IMG/VR virus record: IMGVR_UViG_2565956633_000006
DNA: 13,400 nt
Direction: 5' to 3' (one strand)
Origin: a virus
Lineage: Duplodnaviria; Heunggongvirae; Uroviricota; Caudoviricetes
Shown piece by piece: positions 2,071 through 13,400 of this stretch. The notes beneath the pieces were generated by a model, which saw only the letters and a program-made list of their open reading frames with translations, was not told where the DNA came from and did no database searches. The first letter of the stretch is position 1. Each line of letters begins with the position of its first letter. Both the position numbers and the translations under genes were made by a program.

Positions 2071-2304
2071 ATGAAATCAAAAGACACCCTAAAGTGGTTC
2101 CCTGCGCAGCTTCCTGAAGTAAGAATTATCCTAGGGGATGCTGTAGTGGAAGTAGCAAAACAGGGAAGACCTATCAATACCAGAACATTGCTTGATTACA
2201 TTGAAGGAAACATAAAGAAAAAATCATGGCTGGATAACAAAGAATTATTACAAACAGCGATATCAGTTCTTAAAGACAACCAAAATTTAAATGGTAAAAT
2301 GTAA
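2071..2304 (+). CDS. ydfK: Small prophage protein YdfK (YnaE paralog, cold-shock associated), 77 aa
   Basis: ORF 2038..2304; internal ATG at 2071 (MKSKDTLKWF...) has AAGGA 7 nt upstream, so 2071 is the likely start. Confidence 0.75.
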   Translation: MKSKDTLKWFPAQLPEVRIILGDAVVEVAKQGRPINTRTLLDYIEGNIKKKSWLDNKELLQTAISVLKDNQNLNGKM

Positions 2305-2620
2305 TATAATAAACTTACTTTTTTATCATTTTTCCACTTTAACAACATTTTGCTCCACTTTTCCACGACCAAACAACTTGAAATCTGGTTAAAATAACAC
2401 GCAACACTATTCTTCTTCCTTGAGTCCGCCCGGAACTCGAAAAACAAACCGAGTTAAAGCCATTTTTCACAAAATCGATTTTGGGTCTCACCAAAATTAC
2501 GGGGTTGCATACGCATTCGTTTATTTTCGAACGTGTACATACAAATATGCACAAAAATAATCAAAATTATTTTCTGAGATGCATTATGATATGAACACCA
2601 ATTTCGTATAGAGTCTCACT

Positions 2621-3211
2621 ATGTCTCGAATTTTTGCTTACTGTCGGATATCAACGCTGGATCAGACCACCGAAAATCAACGCCGGGAAATCGAAAGTGC
2701 AGGTTTTAAAATCAAACCTCAGCAAATAATCGAAGAACACATTAGCGGCTCAGCAGCAACCAGTGAGCGTCCTGGTTTTAACCGGTTGCTTGCTCGCCTG
2801 AAATGTGGTGATCAATTGATTGTGACAAAACTGGATCGCCTTGGTTGTAATGCAATGGATATCAGGAAAACAGTGGAACAACTGACCGAAACAGGTATCA
2901 GAGTGCATTGCTTAGCATTGGGGGGCATTGACCTGACCAGTCCAACAGGAAAAATGATGATGCAAGTAATTTCAGCAGTCGCTGAATTTGAACGAGACCT
3001 TTTACTTGAACGCACTCATTCCGGGATAGTAAGAGCCCGGGGCGCAGGGAAACGTTTTGGTCGACCACCTGTGTTAAATGAAGAACAGAAACAGGTGGTA
3101 TTCGAACGAATTAAGTCAGGTGTAAGTATAAGTGCCATTGCCCGGGAATTCAAAACCTCGCGGCAAACCATTTTAAGAGCCAAAGCAAAACTTCAGACAC
3201 CTGACATATAA
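2621..3211 (+). CDS. pinQ: Serine recombinase / DNA invertase (Gin/Hin/Pin family), 196 aa
   Basis: N-terminal [20 protein letters not shown] catalytic-serine motif and C-terminal helix-turn-helix ([23 protein letters not shown]), typical of Pin/Gin/Hin invertases. Confidence 0.95.
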
Positions 3212-3308
3212 AAAATAATCTCGGTGTGAGATGCTTTACGTCTTCCAAGCCACCTTCCTTGCCGTAAATGGAAAGATACATCTAATTATAGAATTTATAT
3301 GTTTTACC

Positions 3309-3884
3309 CTACGGCAGTGCTGGCCATTCAATATCCTGTGCAGTTGACGTATCAACACGGTTCAGCAATACCCGATACTTTTTCCATGCTTCCAGCAACG
3401 AGATTTCTTCCTCCGTTGCAATTTCCAGATCTGCAGCATCCTGAAGCGGCGCAATATGCTCACTGGCTACCTGCATCAGGCTGTTTTTTGTTTCTTCCGC
3501 CTCCCGGATCCGGAACAGTTTTTCTGCTTCCGTATCCTTCACCCAGGCTGTGCCGTTCCACTTCTGATATTCCCCTCCCGGCGATAACCAGGTAACATTT
3601 TCCGGTAACGGACCGAGTTCAGAAATAAATAACGCGTCGCCAGAAGCCACGTCATAAACCGTTTTACCCCGATGATCTTCAACGAGATGCCACGATGCCT
3701 CATCACTGTTGAAAACAGCCACGAAGCCTGCCGGAATATCTGGCGGTGCAATATCGATACTGTTTGCTGGCAGACCTGTATGAGGCGGAATATATGCGTC
3801 ACCTTCACCAATAAATTCATTAGTTCCGGCCAGCAGATTATAAATTTTTATGGTCCGTGGTTGTTCACTCATTCTGAATGCCAT
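3309..3884 (-). CDS. tfaQ: Tail fibre assembly protein (lambda Tfa-like), 191 aa
   Basis: Tfa-family product; start ATG overlaps the stf stop as TAATG at 3882-3886, indicating translational coupling. Confidence 0.9.
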
Positions 3885-4801
3885 TATGCAAGCCTCACAA
3901 TATAGTTAAATGCGATGTTTTTGACGGTGTTTTCCGCGTTACCAGCAGCGTTAACGGTGATGGTATGTCCATGTGAACCAATCGCAACGGAGTGCGTATG
4001 AGCACCAATACCGACAGTATGTGCGTGTGCACCTGCGCTTGCAGCAGTACCCGATACAGAGTGCGTATGAGCGCCTGCAGAAGAAGTGTTAACACTGTAT
4101 TTAGAATAATCAGGTGATCCACTTCCCGGAGCACCACTGGAACCACCTGAAACAAATGTCATCGAATGGGTATGTGCACCGGCTGAAGCAGCCGTACCGC
4201 TAACACTATGGGTATGCGCACCAGTGTTATTCGTGGATTTAGTGCCGTAATCAAACGACGATGTGGTTTTCGTCCCCAAATCCGTACTGGATACGCTGGC
4301 GCTGTGGGTGTGTGATTTAATGCCGTCCTGTTCCTGAGACAATACGGCTCGATCACTGGCGGGCTTGCCCTTAATCGTCCAGCCACGCATATCAGGGATC
4401 ACGCCTGACGGATAAGCGGCTGCAAGTTTCGGGTAAGCAGATTTGTCAAAAGTCTGCCCCTGCATCAGGGCATAACCAGACGGAACGGTATCTGATGGCC
4501 ACGGGATTGGTGCACCGACTGGATAAAACTCTGCAGGAGGATGAGCCGAGGTGTAAAGCTGCGCCCACGGCGACCAGTTTGCGTCGGTCGTATCCCGTCG
4601 TGAACGAATAAATGCCGGAGCATGAGCACCGCTTGTACCACTCCAGCCGATGAGTAACTCACCTTCGCCAACGGCTGTCATCCCTTTCAGGTGAATGATA
4701 TTTCCATACGCTGTTGGATATCCGTTGTTATACACCTCGTATAACTCAAGACCTGTTGCCCCCTGCGTATTGTCTGTCAGCGCGGTTACCCGCGTATCGT
4801 T
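3884..4801 (-). pseudogene. stfQ: Side tail fibre protein, C-terminal fragment (lambda Stf-like)
   Basis: Open frame from the stop at 4802-4804 down to the stop at 3884-3886, with no ATG near the 5' end (first start-like codon is GTG at 4733-4735, without an SD). Product carries repeated GAHTHS...[10 protein letters not shown] His-rich motifs and ends ...[11 protein letters not shown] as in lambda Stf. Confidence 0.85.
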
Positions 4802-4851
4802 TCATCGGCGCGGGCAATGGCAGCATCGAACAGGTTATCGGAATCAGCCAC
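4786..4851 (-). pseudogene. Remnant of lambda FII-like head-tail joining gene (first 21 codons only)
   Basis: GGGAGG followed by GTG GCT GAT TCC GAT AAC CTG TTC GAT GCT GCC ATT GCC CGC GCC GAT GAA ACG ATA CGC GGG TAA, i.e. [21 protein letters not shown], matching the lambda FII N-terminus ([21 protein letters not shown]) as I recall it. Start is GTG here, and the frame stops where the stf-derived sequence begins. Confidence 0.6.
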
Positions 4852-4862
4852 AGCGCCTCCCG

Positions 4863-5258
4863 TTATTGCATTCTGGCCAGGCCATGTTCTGTCATTTCGG
4901 CTGCCACACCGGCAGAGACACGAAACGCCGTTCCCGGCAGCACAAATGCCACAGGCTCATCCCGCGTGGCGTGAAGTGCATCAGTATGCAGCGTCACCAG
5001 TGCCACGACCGTGACCAGAGCAGCCGTATCAATCACGGTATCCGGCTGCGCTGATACCACCTCATTTTCATGTCCGGTCAGCGCATTTTCCGGGCTGACA
5101 GATGTGTCCTGACCGGCAGCGTCATCCGTGTCATCAAGCTCCTCTTCCAGCTCTGCCACACGGAGCACCAGTTCTTCTTTCGTCCCCGTCAGGCTGACAT
5201 CACGGTTCAGTTGCTCACCCAGCACCTGAAGACGGGCAATCAGTTCATCTTTCGTCAT
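4863..5258 (-). CDS. Lambda FI-like DNA packaging protein, 131 aa
   Basis: Product from the internal ATG at 5256-5258 (MTKDELIARLQVLGEQLNRDVSLTGTKEEL...) matches lambda gpFI; strong SD (GGAGGAG) upstream. The longer ORF-track start at 5297 lacks an SD. Confidence 0.85.
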   Translation of the reverse strand: MTKDELIARLQVLGEQLNRDVSLTGTKEELVLRVAELEEELDDTDDAAGQDTSVSPENALTGHENEVVSAQPDTVIDTAALVTVVALVTLHTDALHATRDEPVAFVLPGTAFRVSAGVAAEMTEHGLARMQ

Positions 5259-5279
5259 GGACTCCTCCACAGAGAGAAA

Positions 5280-5297
5280 ATGGCCCCGAAGGGCCAT
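5280..5297 (-). terminator. GC-rich hairpin between the E remnant and FI (ATGGCCC-TTCG-GGGCCAT on the minus strand, then TTTCTCTCT)
   Basis: Perfect 7-bp stem with a 4-nt loop, followed by a U-rich tract on the coding (minus) strand; could act as attenuator or mRNA stabiliser. Confidence 0.35.
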
Positions 5298-5299
5298 GA

Positions 5300-5866
5300 T
5301 TACGCCAGTTGTACGGACACGAACGCATCAGGATCAGCCAGCAGCATCAGCGGTGCTGACTGAATCATGGTGAACTCACGCGCCGGATCGCCGGTGGTCA
5401 CCCAGTTTTTCGGGTAGCGGGCAGAGGCGTTAATACCTTCGCGCTGTGCGTCCGCATCCTGAATGCAGCCATAGGTGCGCAGACCGCGTGCCTGAGTGTT
5501 CCCCAGCACCATCGTGTTGTCCGGCAGGAAGTTCTTTTTGACGTCGTTTTCCACGTACTGTCCGGAATACACGACGATCGCCGTATCGCCATACATCCCC
5601 TTATAGGACACCGCTTCGCCCAGGTCTTTTACCGCTGTCTCCAGCTCGGAATTAGAGCCGCGACGGGTATCCAGCTTCTCCTTGACGGCTTTGAAGGAAC
5701 GGAACAGCGCCCAGCCTTTCGGATCAAACACGATGATATTCACCACGCCGCTGGCGTTCAGCGCGTAGGCTTCGATATCGTCGGTCGGGTCATACGTGGA
5801 CTTGTCACGCTTGCTCCACTCCGTGCCGCCGGACTGCGTGATGTTGTTCGCCGCACTGCGGCCCAT
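5300..5866 (-). pseudogene. Major capsid protein (lambda gpE-like), C-terminal remnant of about 188 codons
   Basis: Product ends ...NTMVLGNTQARGLRTYGCIQDADAQREGINASARYPKNWVTTGDPAREFTMIQSAPLMLLADPDAFVSVQLA, matching the C-terminus of lambda E; the 5' half is absent and replaced by the Nu1-like gene. Confidence 0.85.
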
Positions 5867-6372
5867 ATCAGTTCATCCAGCGCGGCTGCTTTGTTCATGG
5901 CTTTGATGATATCCCGTTTCAGGAAATCAACATGTCGGTTTTCCAGTTCCGGAAAACGCCGCTGCACCGACAGGGGGATCCCGTCGAGAATACTGGCAAT
6001 TTCACCTGCGATCCGCGACAGCACGAAAGTACAGAATGCGGTTTCCACCACTTCAGCGGAGTCTCTGGCATTTTTCAGCTCCTGTGCGTCGGCCTGCGCA
6101 CGCGTAAGTCGATGGCGTTCGTACTCAATAGTCCCTGGCTGGAGATCTGTCTCGCTGGCCTGCCGCAGTTCTTCAACTTCCCGGCGCAGCTTTTCGTTCT
6201 CAATTTCAGCATCCCTTTCGGCATACCATCTTATAACGGCGGCAGAGTCATAAAGCACCTCATTACCCTTGCCACCGCCTCGCAGAACGGGCATTCCCTG
6301 TTCCTGCCAGTTCTGAATGGTACGGATACTCGCACCGAAAATGTCAGCCAGCTGCTTTTTGTTGACTTCCAT
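5758..6372 (-). CDS. nohA: Terminase small subunit Nu1 homolog with altered C-terminus (fusion to out-of-frame capsid-gene sequence)
   Basis: First ~168 aa (MEVNKKQLADIFGASIRTIQNWQEQGMPVLRGGGKGNEVLYDSAAV...) match lambda Nu1 nearly residue for residue; the tail (..WAAVRRTTSRSPAARSGASVTSPRMTRPTISKPTR) is read from E-derived DNA in another frame. Confidence 0.85.
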   Translation of the reverse strand: MEVNKKQLADIFGASIRTIQNWQEQGMPVLRGGGKGNEVLYDSAAVIRWYAERDAEIENEKLRREVEELRQASETDLQPGTIEYERHRLTRAQADAQELKNARDSAEVVETAFCTFVLSRIAGEIASILDGIPLSVQRRFPELENRHVDFLKRDIIKAMNKAAALDELIWAAVRRTTSRSPAARSGASVTSPRMTRPTISKPTR

Positions 6373-6620
6373 TGTTCATTCCACGGCCAAAAACAGAGAA
6401 AGGAAACGACAGAGGCCCAAAAGCTCGTTTTCAGCACCTGTCGTTTCCTTTCTTTTCAGGGGGTATTTTAAATAAAAACATTAAGTTACGACGAAGAAGA
6501 ACGGAAATGCCTTAAACCGGAAAATTTTCATAAATAGCGAAAACCCGCGAGGTCGCCGCCCCGTAACCTGTCGGATCGCCGGAAAGGACCCGCAAAATGA
6601 TAATAATTATCATCTGCATG
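6373..6620 (-). other. Lambda-type cos packaging site (cosN 12-nt cohesive end at 6550..6561, with cosB toward nohA and cosQ on the other side)
   Basis: Reverse complement of 6481-6563 reads GGGGCGGCGACCTCGCGGGTTTTCGCTATTTATGAAAATTTTCCGGTTTAAGGCATTTCCGTTCTTCTTCGTCGTAACTTAA, nearly identical to the lambda left end as I recall it, including cohesive end GGGCGGCGACCT. Confidence 0.8.
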
Positions 6621-6760
6621 TCACAACGTGCATCTACGCCATCAAACCACGTCAAATAATCAATTATGACGCAGATATCGTATTAATTGATCTGCATCAA
6701 CTTAACGTAAAAACAACTTCAGACAATACAAATCAGCGACACTGAATACGGGACAACCTC

Positions 6761-6994
6761 ATGTCAACGAAGAACAGAACCCGCAGAACAACAACCCGCA
6801 ACATCCGCTTTCCTAACCAAATGATTGAACAAATTAACATCGCTCTTGAGCAAAAAGGGTCCGGGAATTTCTCAGCCTGGGTCATTGAAGCCTGCCGCCG
6901 GAGACTGTGCTCAGAAAAAAGAGTTTCTTCTGAAGCAAACAAAGAAAAGAGTGACATTACTGAATTGCTCAGAAAACAGGTCAGACCAGATTGA
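6761..6994 (+). CDS. ynfO: Small ribbon-helix-helix-like protein, 77 aa (lambda right-end ORF homolog)
   Basis: Basic N-terminus (MSTKNRTRRTTTRN) followed by IRFPNQMIEQINIALEQKGSGNFSAWVIEACRRRL, which has the beta-strand/helix/helix pattern of RHH (Arc/CopG) DNA-binding domains; sits beside cos as in lambda. Confidence 0.75.
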   Translation: MSTKNRTRRTTTRNIRFPNQMIEQINIALEQKGSGNFSAWVIEACRRRLCSEKRVSSEANKEKSDITELLRKQVRPD

Positions 6995-7051
6995 AGCAAT
7001 TTAGATAATCGTGCAGACTACGCCCCCTCATATCACATGGAAGGTTTATCT

Positions 7052-7462
7052 ATGGATCAGGTAGTCATTTTTAAACAAATATTTGATAAAGTTCGAAACG
7101 ATTTAAACTATCAATGGTTTTATTCTGAGCTAAAACGTCACAATGTCTCACATTACATTTACTATTTAGCCACAGAGAATGTTCATATTGTATTAAAAAA
7201 TGATAATACAGTGTTATTAAAGGGCCTAAAAAACATTGTGTCTGTCAAATTTTCAAAGGATAGGCATCTTATAGAAACGACCTCTAATAAGCTGAAATCC
7301 AGAGAGATCACATTTCAGGAATACAGAAGAAACCTTGCTAAAGCAGGAGTTTTTCGGTGGGTTACAAATATCCACGAACAAAAAAGATATTACTATACCT
7401 TTGATAATTCATTACTATTTACTGAAAGCATCCAGAAAACTACACAGATCTTACCACGCTAA
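7052..7462 (+). CDS. ydfO: DUF1398-family protein (YbcV/YdfO family), 136 aa
   Basis: ORF 7037..7462; second ATG at 7052 ([14 protein letters not shown]...) has GGAAGG 7 nt upstream and is the likely start. Confidence 0.8.
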
Positions 7463-7470
7463 ACCATAAC

Positions 7471-7499
7471 GTCCGGCTTCTCTCACTCCTGAGCCGGAC
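7471..7499 (+). terminator. Hairpin downstream of ydfO (GTCCGGCT ... AGCCGGAC)
   Basis: 8-bp GC-rich inverted repeat with a 13-nt loop, 9 nt after the ydfO stop; no clean U-tract, so function uncertain. Confidence 0.3.
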
Positions 7500-7613
7500 T
7501 GCATTGGTTTAATAAAAACCATCAACAATTGTGATTTAGATATTCGGAACCATTCAAATATAACAAAACCCCGTAAAAACGAGGTTTATGGATAAATTTT
7601 ATTATTGAATACA

Positions 7614-7787
7614 TCAGATTAAATTAATCTTGACATCATAGCTTTCAAGACCCGTCATTTTTTCCCGTGCGGTAAACTGAATACTGGTAACTTCTTTCCC
7701 GGTCTTTTTCTTAAGTTCAATAATTTTTTTTGTTATATATTCAGAAATATCTGCTTCTGCTTTTGTTTTTAAGTTTTCAATATTCAT
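7614..7787 (-). CDS. gnsB: GnsB-like small protein, 57 aa (MNIENLKTKAEADISEYITKKIIELKKKTGKEVTSIQFTAREKMTGLESYDVKINLI)
   Basis: Absent from the ORF track (under 60 aa); translated by hand from the minus strand. ATG at 7785-7787 with GAGGAA upstream; product resembles GnsA/GnsB. Confidence 0.8.
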   Translation of the reverse strand: MNIENLKTKAEADISEYITKKIIELKKKTGKEVTSIQFTAREKMTGLESYDVKINLI

Positions 7788-7958
7788 CATTTCCTCTTTT
7801 AGTCTGTTATGACTTTCCAGTTACACAGTAAGTCGATTATATGGTGCAAACGTGTAAAAGATAAGATGAAACATCGCAATAATCAACATACGATAGTCTA
7901 AATTTTACACAAACAGACAAAGAAAATTTTCCTGAATTATCAATACAATAGCATCAAA

Positions 7959-8114
7959 TCAACTCAAGAGCCTTATTGCTGCTTCCAGAATTTCTTCTGA
8001 AGTAACATGTCGATCCGCGGCTACATAAATGACTTTATGATCTCCGGTCAGAGATGGAAACCCTGCGGCCATTACAGTAAGGTGTGTTTTTTCGCCATTT
8101 GGATATTCACGCAT
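7959..8114 (-). CDS. ynfN: Small prophage protein YnfN-like (51 aa from ATG 8112-8114); start uncertain
   Basis: ORF track gives 7959..8231 (90 aa, TTG start). In-frame ATGs lie at 8189 and 8114; the 8114 start has GGAG about 11 nt upstream. A strong minus-strand terminator at 8233-8253 sits immediately upstream of the longest form. Confidence 0.5.
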   Translation of the reverse strand: MREYPNGEKTHLTVMAAGFPSLTGDHKVIYVAADRHVTSEEILEAAIRLLS

Positions 8115-8232
8115 GATGGTGTTAACTCCAGTCATCGCTGGCACTACCACTGCAGGTTCAGAGTTAAAAAAAACTATGATTTTTTTCATGATGTTACCGT
8201 AGTATGTGAGTATCCATCGAATAGATACCAAG

Positions 8233-8253
8233 CAAAAAAGCTCCCGAAGGAGC
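8233..8253 (-). terminator. Rho-independent terminator (GCTCC-TTCG-GGAGC followed by TTTTTT on the minus strand)
   Basis: Perfect 5-bp GC stem, tetraloop, then six U residues on the minus-strand transcript; about 205 nt downstream of the cspI stop. Confidence 0.6.
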
Positions 8254-8460
8254 CTTCATTTTCACTTTTTTAAATCCAACGACAGACGGCTGGCATTTAA
8301 GTATTGTGAAATATTATCAAATGTAATCATCATTGATTTACAAAAGATACATTTTGCCCCGAAAGGATTCATGTCAGAAACATCAAAAGATGATGTTCTA
8401 TACTGGGAACCATGACAACACGGGCATCTAAAGTGAATATGGTTTGTAATATTGTCTACC

Positions 8461-8673
8461 TCAAAGCGCCACTACATGAACAGCGGCAGGACCTTTAGGT
8501 CCGTTCTCAATACCAAATTCAACTTCCTGATTCTCAGTTAATGTTTTGAAATCGTTGCTCTGAATTGCTGAGAAATGGACAAACACATCTTTGCTGCCAT
8601 CTTTCGGCGTGATGAAACCAAAACCTTTTTCAGGGTTAAACCATTTCACTAAACCAGTCATTTTGTTAGACAT
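8461..8673 (-). CDS. cspI: Cold-shock protein CspI (CspA family), 70 aa
   Basis: [38 protein letters not shown]... with RNP1 (KGFGFI) and RNP2 (VFVHF) motifs; long leader region upstream. Confidence 0.95.
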
Positions 8674-9037
8674 AATTATTACCTTTTGAAGAAATTAGCC
8701 CTTGGGCAGAATGGTCCGAAAAAAAAATATCAGAGAGAAAAACCAACAAGGAAATCTCAAGAGGTACAAATAATAAAATTATAACAATGACTGCTTCAGA
8801 TAAATTTGTAACAAACCAGAACACCATTAACGCATGATTAACCACCCATAGCAAGGATTACTTTTGTAAAGAAAAACACAGCAATGAAAGAATAGCTTTA
8901 TTTATTAATAATAACGTGTCATTCTGATTAAGACCTTTTATCTTACCCTTAAGATTTCAGGAATTTTGGCTCATGGAAGAGTCCTTTTTATTTAAATTTT
9001 ACATTCCGCGATGTAAATGTTCCGATTTAATATTACC

Positions 9038-10061
<1,024 letters not shown>

Positions 10062-10065
<4 letters not shown>

Positions 10066-10373
10066 ATATATTTATGATGAGGACGCTCGTGCTTATTGGC
10101 AGGATTTTCAATCTTAAAGGAGTACTGATGCTGCAGATAAGACTCAACTTTTTCTGACAATTTTTCTGCTACTTCCAGGAAGACTTGCCGGACGCTCCTT
10201 CTGGCTGCTGCCTCATAAAACTCCAGCGCAGCTCCTTCAACACGGTCCATGGCGACATCCAGGTCAAAAATTTCACCGTCAAAGCGTTCTTTGTCCTGTA
10301 AGGCTACAGTTACCGTAACTTTATTCTCAAAATTACGGACTCCTTTCACAACCAGTTCATAGTCTTGAGTCAT
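10062..10373 (-). CDS. ydfR: Uncharacterised protein inserted between holin and endolysin (DUF1327 family), 103 aa
   Basis: Intact ORF, 4 nt after the holin stop and overlapping the endolysin start (ATGA); acidic, predicted soluble. Confidence 0.8.
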
Positions 10374-10377
10374 TGGA

Positions 10378-10593
10378 TTACTCTCCTCTCGCAGCCTTAC
10401 GCCTGTCTTCTTTAATCTTGAAATAAAGATTTGTCAGATACGTCAGCAGGCCAAAAACCAGGCTACCCAGCACACCGATTGCAGCCCACTGTGACGGAGT
10501 TACTTTATCGAGTAACTGCAATGCCCAGAAACCAGCATTACCCGCCGATGTGCCATAGGCAACACCTGTTGTTAACTTATCCATTGATTTCAT
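10378..10593 (-). CDS. essQ: Class II holin / pinholin (phage 21 S-like), 71 aa with dual-start motif
   Basis: [71 protein letters not shown] resembles S21; Met1-Lys-Ser-Met4 dual start; GAGG SD upstream of the ATG at 10591-10593. The longer track ORF (to 10668) is upstream read-through. Confidence 0.9.
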
Positions 10594-10812
10594 ATCCTCA
10601 CCCCGATGTACACGGATGGTGCAATATGTTTGAAAAGATCGGAGTCTACGGGGTAGTTTTGACAGCACACGTTGTTCTCAACGGCGCTAAAAAAACATAC
10701 ACATTAAAAATGTGGGTAATTATTTTGAAAGAAAGTCATATATAAAATAATAATACGAGAAATGTTTTCATATTTAGTGTACTGTATACGGCCATTTATA
10801 CAGGAAAAGCCT

Positions 10813-10983
10813 ATGTCAGAACGTAAAAACTCAAAATCACGCCGTAATTATCTCGTTAAATGTTCCTGCCCAAACTGCACCCAAGAGTCAGAACACAGTT
10901 TTTCAAGAGTACAAAAAGGTGCCCTTTTGATCTGCCCTCATTGCAACAAAGTATTCCAGACAAATCTTAAAGCTGTAGCCTGA
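10813..10983 (+). CDS. ynfU: Small zinc-ribbon protein, 56 aa (MSERKNSKSRRNYLVKCSCPNCTQESEHSFSRVQKGALLICPHCNKVFQTNLKAVA); possibly ynfU
   Basis: ATG at 10813 with AGGA 7 nt upstream; two Cys pairs (C-x-C-P-x-C and C-P-x2-C) form a putative zinc ribbon; basic N-terminus. Symbol assigned from memory of a Qin small zinc-binding protein, not verified. Confidence 0.5.
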   Translation: MSERKNSKSRRNYLVKCSCPNCTQESEHSFSRVQKGALLICPHCNKVFQTNLKAVA

Positions 10984-11040
10984 TTGATTTTATTAGTAAC
11001 AAGTATTTTTTATATTTTAATAATATATTTAAAGCAGATA

Positions 11041-11065
11041 ATAAAAAACCCGCCTGAGCGGGTTT
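11041..11065 (-). terminator. Rho-independent terminator (AACCCGC-TCAG-GCGGGTT followed by TTTTTTAT on the minus strand); weakly bidirectional
   Basis: 7-bp GC-rich stem with tetraloop and a U-tract on the minus-strand transcript; downstream of cspB and convergent with the zinc-ribbon ORF. Confidence 0.6.
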
Positions 11066-11346
11066 GAGATTGTGGTGCTTTTTGTGGGAGTCATCCACTT
11101 ACGCACTTTGTTTTGCCATGCCAGCAGTTAGCTTCTGCTGTAAAACTATTCATGCAGCAAACCTGCACTTCACCACAATGGTTAGCATACTTTTCCTGAT
11201 TAAGATTTTGCCAAATATGCTAGCCATTGTTTCATGTATTGGACCTCCTTACTTTTTATTAAAGAGATCCAATATTCACTACTCTGTCCGTATCTCTACT
11301 CAGGCATCAGCCTTCTTCGTTATCGTATACAGACGAGCGATGAATT

Positions 11347-11562
11347 TTAATCAGTAATGATGACATTTGCTGCTGCAGGACCTTTAGCACCACTCTCTAT
11401 AGAGAAGGTAACCTTTTGACCTTCAAATAAGGTTCGATAATTATCATTCTGAATCGCAGAAAAATGCACAAACACATCTTTACTACCATCAACAGGAGAA
11501 ATAAAGCCGAAACCTTTATCAGCGTTAAACCATTTTACTAAACCAGTCATTTTATTTGACAT
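11347..11562 (-). CDS. cspB: Cold-shock protein CspB (CspA family), 71 aa
   Basis: [38 protein letters not shown]...; AAGGA SD 7 nt upstream of the ATG at 11560-11562. Confidence 0.95.
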
Positions 11563-11862
11563 TCTACATTCCTTAACTTGAGCCTTTCGGCATAAATGGT
11601 TTGCATAACAGAAACGACTTCGTACTTAATTGGAGAGACTCAAAGAAGGAATAAGTGAATAACACCTGAAATGAGAACTGCTTTAGTAAACTACTTCGTA
11701 TATCGTCTGTTCTTCAAACCGACGCAATCATTAACGCATAGTTGAACATATGAAGCAATGTTTATTTTAGACATCCAGCCATCTTCAACCCCATCAAAAA
11801 ACTATAGCTTTCTTCAGGAACGTGTGTATAGTGCGCCAAGTTATCAGTATTAAGGAATTTTT
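11563..11862. promoter_or_regulatory. Divergent cspB/cspF control region (promoters and long 5' leaders)
   Basis: 300-bp AT-rich spacer between divergently oriented csp genes; contains a repeated ACTTCGTA motif (11615-11626 and 11691-11705) in the expected cspB leader. CspA-family genes are known to carry long regulatory 5' UTRs. Confidence 0.5.
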
Positions 11863-12075
11863 TTGTCCCGTAAAATGACAGGAATTGTCAAAACCTTTGA
11901 CGGCAAAAGCGGCAAGGGTCTTATCACCCCATCCGATGGTCGTATCGATGTCCAGCTTCATGTCTCAGCGCTCAATCTCCGCGATGCAGAAGAAATTACC
12001 ACCGGATTACGCGTGGAATTTTGCCGGATAAATGGTCTGCGTGGCCCTTCAGCTGCCAATGTTTACCTTTCATGA
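11863..12075 (+). CDS. cspF: CspA-family paralog CspF, 70 aa, with degenerate nucleic-acid-binding motifs; probable TTG start
   Basis: [38 protein letters not shown]...; start codon at 11863 is TTG with AAGGA 6 nt upstream; RNP1/RNP2 aromatic residues are replaced (KGKGLI, VQLHV). Confidence 0.9.
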
Positions 12076-12361
12076 GCTATATTAAAGCTTTAATTTCAGG
12101 CCCCATCGGATCACACATGGAGAGTTTTTATGAATAACCCCGTCTGTCTTGATGACTGGTTGATTGGCTTTAAAAGCTTATGCTGTACTTTGGCCGTAAT
12201 AGCTCTGCTAATAATATAATAAGCAGACTCATTGTGTTTAGGGACATTGTACTGGAAGAAAACATTTTAAACATCAGGCAAATAACCAAGTCACCAGCTA
12301 AATAATAAGTTAACAGACATGAGTCCCGGGATGAGATTCAACATTACCATTGCCCCATTTA

Positions 12362-12400
12362 AAGCACAAAACCCGCTCATCAGCGGGTTTTCTACTTTTT
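12362..12400. terminator. Bidirectional rho-independent terminator (AAACCCGCT-CATC-AGCGGGTTT with T-rich flanks on both strands); candidate tR'
   Basis: 9-bp stem; the plus strand continues TCTACTTTTT and the minus-strand transcript continues TTTTGTGCTTT. Confidence 0.6.
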
Positions 12401-12436
12401 CTTAACGTCGGGTATACAAAGCCCATCGTTGAAAAA

Positions 12437-12465
12437 ATTTTATCCATATTTTTTGAAAAATGCAA
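12437..12465 (-). promoter_or_regulatory. Candidate sigma70 late promoter (pR'-like): -35 TTGCAT, 17-bp spacer, -10 TAAAAT, on the minus strand
   Basis: Hexamers read from the minus strand just downstream of the quuQ stop; a terminator hairpin lies about 40-60 nt downstream, as in lambdoid pR'/tR' units. Confidence 0.35.
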
Positions 12466-12496
12466 ACATCATGTCGCCATCTTCAGCAAAAATCAT

Positions 12497-13249
12497 TTAT
12501 CTCGTCACCTTCCTCAATTGCGCTTCCGCGTATGCTTCTTCCTGCCAGCACTTTGTTACCAGTTTACCAATGACGTCCGCATACCCCTTATACCACTGAT
12601 AATCGGTCAGGTCTGGTACCAGCTTCTGGACATGACGTCGTGCCAGCGTGGTCGGTAAACGACTAAACCGGTTTCCATTACAACGCCCACAAATCTTATA
12701 TACCGGTACGCCATGAAACCGGGTTCTTTTTTCATCCAGAACAATCCCTTTACCCTTACACCCTCTGCACGCTGTGCTGGCTTCGCCCTTACCATGGCAA
12801 TGCTGACATAGTTCCTTCACCCATTCTTCCTTGATTACAGATTCCCCGCGTCTGTAGTGTTTCACCACTTCGCGCAATACATTATAAAATCCCGTACCTG
12901 AACAATGCTCACAGCGAGCCTTACTTGCCGCAGACCTGGAGTAATCAGCAAAGGCAAAACTCACGAGGTAAGGAATAATCTGTAACCGGATTTCTTCACT
13001 CAATTTGTTCAATGTCGGGTTATCCAGTGCCATCGCGTAATTTAGCAGGCCTTCAATCGCAAACTGAGGGTCCTGAACACCAACTTTTGCCAGAAATAAG
13101 GCCAACCCAAGTGGTGCTTTCGACTGCACCATCCCCTGCGCTGCCATTACATCCGTAATTGTTAAACAACCGGTGCCTGTCGCTGGAGCGTCATCGCTCA
13201 ATTTTGGAGATTTTGGGGAGTAATATTTTGGTAAGGCTTCAAGGTTCAT
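12497..13249 (-). CDS. quuQ: Late-gene antiterminator Q-like protein, 250 aa
   Basis: Cys-rich zinc-binding region (CEHCSGTG...CQHCHGKG...CRGCKGKG...CGRCNG) typical of phage Q antiterminators; ATG at 13247-13249 has GGAG 7 nt upstream. The track start at 13279 is TTG with no SD. Confidence 0.9.
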   Translation of the reverse strand: MNLEALPKYYSPKSPKLSDDAPATGTGCLTITDVMAAQGMVQSKAPLGLALFLAKVGVQDPQFAIEGLLNYAMALDNPTLNKLSEEIRLQIIPYLVSFAFADYSRSAASKARCEHCSGTGFYNVLREVVKHYRRGESVIKEEWVKELCQHCHGKGEASTACRGCKGKGIVLDEKRTRFHGVPVYKICGRCNGNRFSRLPTTLARRHVQKLVPDLTDYQWYKGYADVIGKLVTKCWQEEAYAEAQLRKVTR

Positions 13250-13262
13250 GCTCGTTCTCCAC

Positions 13263-13400
13263 TTACGCCAGTACGCCAATTGCCAGCGCGCGATCGATAA
13301 AACGAAATATCAGCTCCAGTTGGGAGCCATACTTATCTTCAAATGCCACTGTATCCGTATGCAGCTCGTTGTGATGCTTTCTGCACAAAGGCAACACAAA
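13263..13400 (-). CDS. ydfU: 3' end of a ydfU-like prophage gene (partial; 5' end beyond window)
   Basis: Open minus-strand frame to the window edge ending ...FVLPLCRKHHNELHTDTVAFEDKYGSQLELIFRFIDRALAIGVLA with stop at 13263-13265, 13 nt upstream of the quuQ start. The C-x2-HH-x3-H pattern is HNH-like. Confidence 0.6.
   Translation of the reverse strand, partial: FVLPLCRKHHNELHTDTVAFEDKYGSQLELIFRFIDRALAIGVLA

Follow-up and report, generated by a model that had tools for sequence, protein, structure and literature searches.

A lambda-type cos site beside truncated nohA in the Qin prophage of Escherichia coli, compared with lambda and with the deposited phage PhiR42_1

Packaging in situ from the cos of a prophage that has not excised was reportedly described by Sternberg and Weisberg in 1975, as lambda 'doc' particles. 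When cos-type packaging is initiated, the terminase small subunit (TerS) binds cosB, the large subunit (TerL) nicks cosN, and the terminase stays on the cosB end, from which translocation proceeds (PMC4669245, where the role of cosQ in packaging is also described). The I2 segment is essential for initiation and sets the critical cosN-cosB spacing, and the cosQ-side end that is left after cutting is nuclease-exposed (PMC4856287). For cos-type terminases to finish, a second, downstream cos is needed (PMC8575938; also PMC4669245). What follows when a prophage cos has the specificity of an infecting phage has already been discussed in print (PMC4669245): a phage with the packaging specificity of the prophage initiates at the prophage cos and packages the adjacent bacterial DNA (Feiss et al. 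2015), the predicted outcome being a head-full stall and a tailless, non-infectious particle or, where a downstream crossover with the lytic phage occurs, a recombinant phage.

PICIs excise and replicate on helper growth and carry a helper-like cosQ/cosN without R repeats; the PICI gene rpp adjoins cos, and its product, Rpp, retargets the helper TerS (PMC9026076). In DLP12, a sister prophage of Qin with nohD and cos, the cos-nohD region recombines into lambda and works there: lambda gains markers of DLP12 at approximately 100 times the frequency of those of Qin or Rac, 10 of the 19 sequenced lambda x DLP12 junctions adjoin cos, and lambda hybrids carrying DLP12 nu1 are viable (PMC3945230). The nohA-cos region of Qin is itself already known and is a textbook feature of E. 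coli K-12. The classical paper on lambda qin111 is said to concern lambda hybrids with the Qin late region.

By its sequence, the window (the whole stretch of DNA analyzed, 13,400 nucleotides) comes from Escherichia coli, where the defective lambdoid prophage Qin occupies ydfJ, and it comprises the late half of that prophage. Its insertion site and gene order are those of Qin in E. coli K-12, where nohA, ynfO and ydfO are annotated alike. The genes follow one another as ydfJ', ynfT, ydfK, pinQ, tfaQ, a tail-fibre remnant, nohA, ynfO, ydfO, gnsB, ynfN, cspI, rzpQ, rrrQ, ydfR, essQ/essD, cspB, cspF, quuQ (ydfT) and ydfU. With the deletion region excepted, the window was colinear (at least 99%) with the annotated Qin loci of the K-12-like PD007 and of EC26, and the strain-to-strain difference at the Qin locus was confined to the stretch between the tail-fibre remnant and nohA.

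The reverse complement of 6923..5866 was colinear with lambda (NC_001416) 48141-48502 joined to 1-697, with no rearrangement and with 33 differences in 1059 alignment columns. Within this alignment, 6373-6620 (minus strand) corresponded to lambda 48444-48502 plus 1-190, the complete cosQ-cosN-I2-cosB cassette, and nearly coincided with the 238-bp fragment (lambda 48446-182) that served as the complete cos cassette in Feiss laboratory work (PMC4856287). The neighboring gene on the cosQ side and the subsites of cos were located as follows (window coordinates, strand, feature).

6761..6994, plus strand: ynfO (DUF3950), the cosQ-side neighbor of cos, as at the lambda right end and in phage PhiR42_1
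6585..6591, minus strand: cosQ, GGGTCCT, the packaging-termination subsite, 7/7 identical to lambda (lambda 48473-48479 in the Feiss-laboratory literature)
6545..6566, minus strand: cosN nicking site, TTACGGGGCGGCGACCTCGCGG, 22/22 exact
6550-6561, minus strand: 12-nt cohesive-end sequence, GGGCGGCGACCT, within cosN
6512..6544, minus strand: I2 (lambda bp 18-50), AT-rich and bent, linking cosN to cosB, unchanged
6497..6512, minus strand: R3 of cosB (lambda bp 50-65), the critical TerS binding site, with its core at 6498-6509, one change
6454..6496, minus strand: R3-R2 interval (IHF site I1 in lambda; position of the IHF site approximate), substitutions bp73 A>G and bp102 T>C
6442..6453, plus strand: R2 core of cosB, CGTTTCCTTTCT, exact, inverted relative to R3 and R1
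6397..6408, minus strand: R1 core of cosB, CGTTTCCTTTCT, exact

Over the 248 bp of 6373-6620, 13 differences from lambda were counted (12 substitutions and one 1-bp deletion), an identity of approximately 94.8%. The preliminary description had called cosN, cosQ and cosB near-identical to lambda, and this was borne out by the complete matches in cosN and cosQ; the wording is acceptable, if on the generous side, given that the coding part of nohA next to cos lies nearer to lambda (8 differences in 507 bp). The cosN match was unique in the window at up to 3 mismatches (0 expected, shuffles). No difference was present from lambda bp 13 to bp 53, the cosN-R3 spacing was that of lambda, and the cosQ-cosN spacer was free of indels, with one substitution (lambda 48486) common to all six deposited phages aligned. 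Indels were likewise absent from cosN to R2, the lone 1-bp deletion lying between R2 and R1, and the R3-I1-R2(inverted)-R1 layout and its spacing were kept, with R2 in the inverted orientation given for complex cosB sites (PMC4669245). The sole change in R3 was bp54 G>A, at window position 6508. The contacts of TerS on R3 have been placed at bp 55-63 by NMR, and the known packaging mutations in R3 are at bp 56, 58 and 59 (PMC9026076); in the window the contact core, bp 55-63, was 9/9 identical to lambda, and bp 56, 58 and 59 were all the lambda bases. The claim of an apparently intact site was confirmed: no mismatch was found in cosN or in the R2 and R1 cores, the one in R3 (bp54) is outside the contact core, and all the subsites of genetically demonstrated importance are intact. 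The subsites, their order, orientation and spacing are those of the lambda cos, as are the recognition helix and wing encoded by the adjacent terS; unlike the lambda site, this one is chromosomal, and the prophage around it has lost the terminase large subunit along with most of the genes for head and tail.

To place the changed bases, deposited phage genomes were searched (95 records with the nohA-cos region), and the cos sequences of six deposited phages, lambda and three Qin alleles were aligned. The changes at bp54, bp73, bp102 and bp48486 and the R2-R1 1-bp deletion might have inactivated cos for lambda terminase, a reading favored by the number of differences from lambda over the cassette, by a G at bp54 in all three lambda R repeats, and by R3 being the most sensitive repeat (PMC9026076). 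Each non-lambda base of the window cos was, however, present in at least one of the deposited phages aligned, complete phages with a closely related Nu1 region: the R2-R1 deletion in 6/6, bp73 G in 5/6, and bp102 C in 4/6. Bp54 A was found in PhiR42_1 only among the phages sampled, and also in K-12 Qin, and the 5' side of R3 is variable among lambda-like phages (bp53 is T in 2H10 and PhiR29_1). The complete set of variants occurs in Escherichia phage PhiR42_1 (PV340562), the cos of which is identical to 6373-6620 (100%), as is its Nu1 to NohA over the retained part of nohA (507 bp, also 100%). With the R3 contact core and the cosN-R3 spacing unchanged as well, inactivation of the site is judged very unlikely. 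The window cos is, from these sequence comparisons, very probably a working cos of lambda specificity, cleavable by a terminase of that specificity; because of the intact subsites, the identity with PhiR42_1 and the DNA-binding domain of NohA, a helper with lambda packaging specificity should recognize and cut it.

PhiR42_1 is recorded (PV340562.1, 1-48668) as a 48.7 kb complete genome with a named propagation host, ECOR13. No publication on PhiR42_1 or on the PhiR phage series was found in a literature search, so that its viability rests on the GenBank record. Gene for gene, it is an intact Qin, a full int-to-pin lambdoid genome, with int, xis, exoVIII, ydfD/C/B, dicA/dicC-type repressors, O, flxA, ydfV, relBE, a hokD-like gene and rem; ydfU, Q, cspF, cspB, S, ydfR, R, rzpQ, cspI, ynfN, gnsB, ydfO, ynfO and cos; Nu1, A, W, B, C/Nu3, D, E, FI, FII, Z, U, V, G, T and H; and M, L, K, I, J, lom, stf, tfa, pin and ydfK. 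As such it is the complete counterpart of the 'cryptic' Qin and carries all the cargo genes of K-12 Qin. The cargo genes between its lysis genes and cos are those of the window, and window positions 5866-13400 matched it at 99.8% identity, whereas the 20.1 kb of packaging, head and tail genes that the window has lost are present in PhiR42_1. Relative to PhiR42_1, two segments were absent. The first (24195-30087, approximately 5.9 kb) held the last 12 Nu1 codons, A, W, B, C/Nu3 and D, along with the 5' half of E; the second (31174-45348, approximately 14.2 kb) began within FII, most of which is lost, and continued through J and lom into stf, taking its N-terminal part. Where the retained pieces meet, neighboring BLAST segments shared 4 and 6 bases, which fits microhomology-mediated deletion and suggests, on sequence grounds, that the deletions arose in that way. 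What they left beside cos were the following two features.

5758..6372, minus strand: nohA, truncated terminase small subunit, by BLASTP; Pfam Phage_Nu1 positions 1-164 of 164, E=3.5e-101
4787..5865, minus strand: head-gene remnant island, made up of the C-terminal 188 aa of E, all of the FI ORF and ~65 bp from the start of FII

NohA consists of Nu1 residues 1-169 (166/169 identical to lambda, 98%) followed by 35 out-of-frame residues from E, and the homology with lambda ends at bp 697, window position 5866. Since residues 1-169 are retained, the winged-helix DNA-binding domain and the central region are intact. Lambda Nu1 is matched without change at residues 1-47, which take in the recognition helix (17-24) as well as the wing (31-39), in agreement with the Nu1 DNA-binding domain that had been noted next to cos. 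The last 12 residues of Nu1, part of the TerL-binding end, are missing; in the literature, a TerS without its last 30 residues is described as binding TerL poorly. In the island, Pfam matches covered positions 147-328 of 329 of the Phage_cap_E profile and 1-131 of 131 of Packaging_FI, and the stf C-terminus and tfa were kept as further remnants. That the prophage lacks the terminase large subunit and structural genes, as first described, is right in substance, with E', FI, the stf C-terminus and tfa persisting as remnants. The island matched PhiR42_1 30088-31173 at 95.7%; set against 99.8% to the right of the deletion, this indicates that the head-gene remnant (4787-5869) is of another lineage than the late block. 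The E'-FI part common to EC26 (window 5144-5777) had only 93.7% identity with EC26.

The preliminary description had also taken an intact cos amid extensive decay as a meaningful sign, and this did not hold up. Decay of Qin is here, as read from the sequence, by deletion, without point-mutation erosion. The surviving block, which runs Q - cspF/cspB - lysis genes - cspI - gnsB - ydfO - ynfO - cos - nohA, is 99.7% identical to PhiR42_1 throughout: 11 differences were counted over 5866-9802 (3,937 bp, 99.72% identity). At that rate approximately 0.7 differences would be expected in the 248-bp cos interval and 0 were observed, and the absence of differences in cos is unremarkable given the identity across the surviving 3.9-kb block. 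Special conservation of cos was rejected on this count and because, relative to lambda, cos is more diverged than nohA. Intactness beside decay is thus a product of deletion-driven prophage erosion, for which selection is not needed, and cos is probably a passive relic in a block that deletion has yet to remove. A lambda-type cos is common in the species, having been found in 4,591 of 5,426 complete E. coli genomes (85%), the median copy number being two.

At least four independent deletion alleles of the Qin locus were observed, described here by their joints.

Window allele: Nu1 codon 169 joined to E, with the E'-FI island kept
K-12 allele: Nu1 approximately codon 176 joined to stf
EC26 allele: mid-A joined to E
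W5-6 allele: 3' end of A joined to tfaQ

K-12 Qin lacks the deletion allele of the window, which is peculiar to the window strain: the E'/nohA junction had no single-piece match in the 5,426 complete E. coli genomes and no exact match among GTDB species representatives. The unique allele is a strain detail only. All four alleles keep cos and at least 169 nohA codons. Retention of cos across deletion alleles was considered as evidence of selection and set aside, as the loci were retrieved with cos-containing queries and the allele sample is biased for that reason.

These alleles bear on a reading in which the chromosomal cos and the tail-truncated TerS, NohA, are kept to misdirect or titrate the terminase of an invading phage of lambda packaging specificity and so lower its burst. 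NohA, switched on by the late-gene activation of the invader, would occupy cosB or poison TerS oligomers, and terminase and proheads would be diverted to the chromosomal cos for dead-end packaging. Several features could be accommodated by such a module: NohA keeps its DNA-binding and oligomerization parts while lacking the last 12 residues of Nu1, four independent deletion alleles keep cos together with nohA, nohA stands last in a late operon with a Q antiterminator of its own, and a cost of such initiation to the invader was noted by the Feiss laboratory. The retention counts for little, however, in an ascertainment-biased sample, and the conservation of cos is that of the neighboring DNA and matches the neutral expectation. 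Other Qin alleles retain full-length Nu1, or Nu1 and most of A, so that no truncated form is favored, and one chromosomal cos set against the hundreds of cos sites in phage concatemers would be a weak decoy. A role in interference is judged very unlikely, and the particular route through NohA and dead-end packaging very doubtful.

On the favored reading, that of a passive relic, the trigger for cutting would be lytic growth in the same cell of a phage of lambda specificity (lambda, 434, phi80 or a Qin-like phage). The helper TerS dimer, together with IHF, would bind R3/I1/R2, and TerL would nick cosN; the terminase would then be held on the cosB/nohA end and feed DNA into a prohead. With nohA lying left of cosN and read from the minus strand, packaging should proceed toward decreasing coordinates, along nohA, E', FI, stf', tfaQ, pinQ, ydfK and ydfJ and into the host chromosome. 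Approximately 5.3 kb of prophage remnant would be packaged first, followed by ydfJ, ydfI and beyond, with the bulk of Qin left behind. No second cosN was found within the 13.4-kb window. Where no cosQ-cosN lies downstream, the motor would stall at head-full and leave a tailless, non-infectious particle, and the unprotected cosQ-side end would be open to nucleases and recombination. The sole productive outcome would be recombination with the helper through the homologous stretches on either side of cos, namely nohA and, beyond cosQ, ynfO with the late region, giving hybrid phages with the Qin cos module; the element itself would not be mobilized, and NohA would be dispensable for the whole process. 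From the sequence, it is likely that the relic cos is cut by a helper in this way, with abortive packaging or recombinant phages as the result. The lambda 'doc' particles are said to be alike in having a single chromosomal cos, directional packaging into adjacent host DNA, a stall, and tailless particles; they differ in using the terminase of the prophage itself, whereas for the window cos a helper must supply it. A single Chi (GCTGGTGG) was present in rrrQ (9640-9647, minus strand), 3.1 kb from cos. It is so oriented that it should act on RecBCD coming in from the unprotected cosQ-side end of a cos cut; a single Chi in 13.4 kb is no more than chance would give (one or more in 46 of 200 shuffles).

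It had further been proposed that the element could be packaged in trans by a helper, behaving like a cos-satellite. The part of this proposal that concerns recognition was upheld, the cos looking competent for a lambda-type helper; satellite behavior was not supported, given the direction of packaging, the single cos in the window and the absence of PICI hallmarks there. A satellite in the full sense would require that a lambda-cos helper package the degraded prophage in trans and pass it on whole, in the manner of a PICI. An intact cos with the specificity of the helper speaks for it, as does the fact that cos-type satellites of lambda and phi80 are known in E. coli; the early region, if intact as in PhiR42_1 (int, xis, O), could in principle allow excision and replication. 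The cos-type PICIs (EcCICFT073 / PICI-A) share with the window a chromosomal location, an incomplete morphogenesis set, and a cosQ-cosN like that of lambda-type helpers. They have their own cosB without R repeats, whereas the cosB of the window is of the helper type, with R3, R2 and R1; and rpp lies next to the PICI cos, whereas the neighbor here is a truncated terS (Phage_Nu1, 98% identical to lambda Nu1). The window held no rpp and no PICI-type cosB, nor were int, alpA or pri-rep/ori-type genes found within its 13.4 kb, which is the late half of the prophage (the early region lies outside the window). Packaging would exit the element after approximately 5.3 kb, the rest of Qin being upstream of cosQ, and the second cos that is required was absent from the window.

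Length is a further difficulty for transfer as a unit. PhiR42_1 less the 20.1 kb leaves approximately 28.6 kb, of which a monomer is 59% and a dimer 117% of the parental genome. The packaging limits of lambda are roughly 75-105% of genome length. Neither monomer nor dimer should be packaged, as both fall outside these limits, assuming that the remainder of the prophage is as in PhiR42_1. The length dependence of cos cleavage is credited to Feiss and Siegele (1979) in a passage of PMC8575938. In addition, K-12 Qin showed no excision during lambda infection (PMC3945230). A cos-satellite is on these grounds considered very unlikely.

Footprints of recombination were found at cos in the Qin alleles. 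On the cosQ side of cosN, K-12-like and EC26 Qin were identical to lambda (130/130); on the cosB side they were non-lambda, with most of the window variants in common (all of them in K-12). The window cos is of the PhiR42_1 type on both sides, in contrast to the lambda-identical cosQ side of K-12 Qin. Since K-12 and EC26 are lambda-like on the cosQ side only, a recombination joint is placed within ~70 bp of cosN. In E. coli genomes, homology over nohA-cos-ynfO frequently broke off at cos or next to it (positions 656, 684 and 747 of the query), and in some prophages only the ~95-bp cosQ-cosN-I2 core (window 6517-6612) was in common, beside a different terS. Judged by sequence, this fits a role of cos as a module boundary in lambdoid mosaics.

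The value of the locus is modest: it illustrates how cryptic prophages store functional packaging modules on which phage mosaicism can draw. In carrier strains, a terminase-made double-strand break at cos would be predicted whenever a phage of lambda specificity grows, and such breaks can bias recombination and sequencing-coverage patterns near ydfJ.

A promoter/terminator scan of 6200-6900 gave chance-level hits only, and in an Rfam scan no RNA family overlapped cos. The serine invertase gene pinQ is intact in the window. No inverted repeats of at least 20 bp flanking the stf'/tfaQ segment were found in window 2300-5000, and the usual invertible tail-fibre cassette appears incomplete for that reason. 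A match to Rfam IS009 (221 bits, above the gathering score) was present at 3343-3541 (minus strand), within the tfaQ coding region. Two cspA-type thermoregulator leaders (Rfam, above the gathering score) were identified at 8434-8820 and 11331-11723 (both minus strand), upstream of cspI and cspB.
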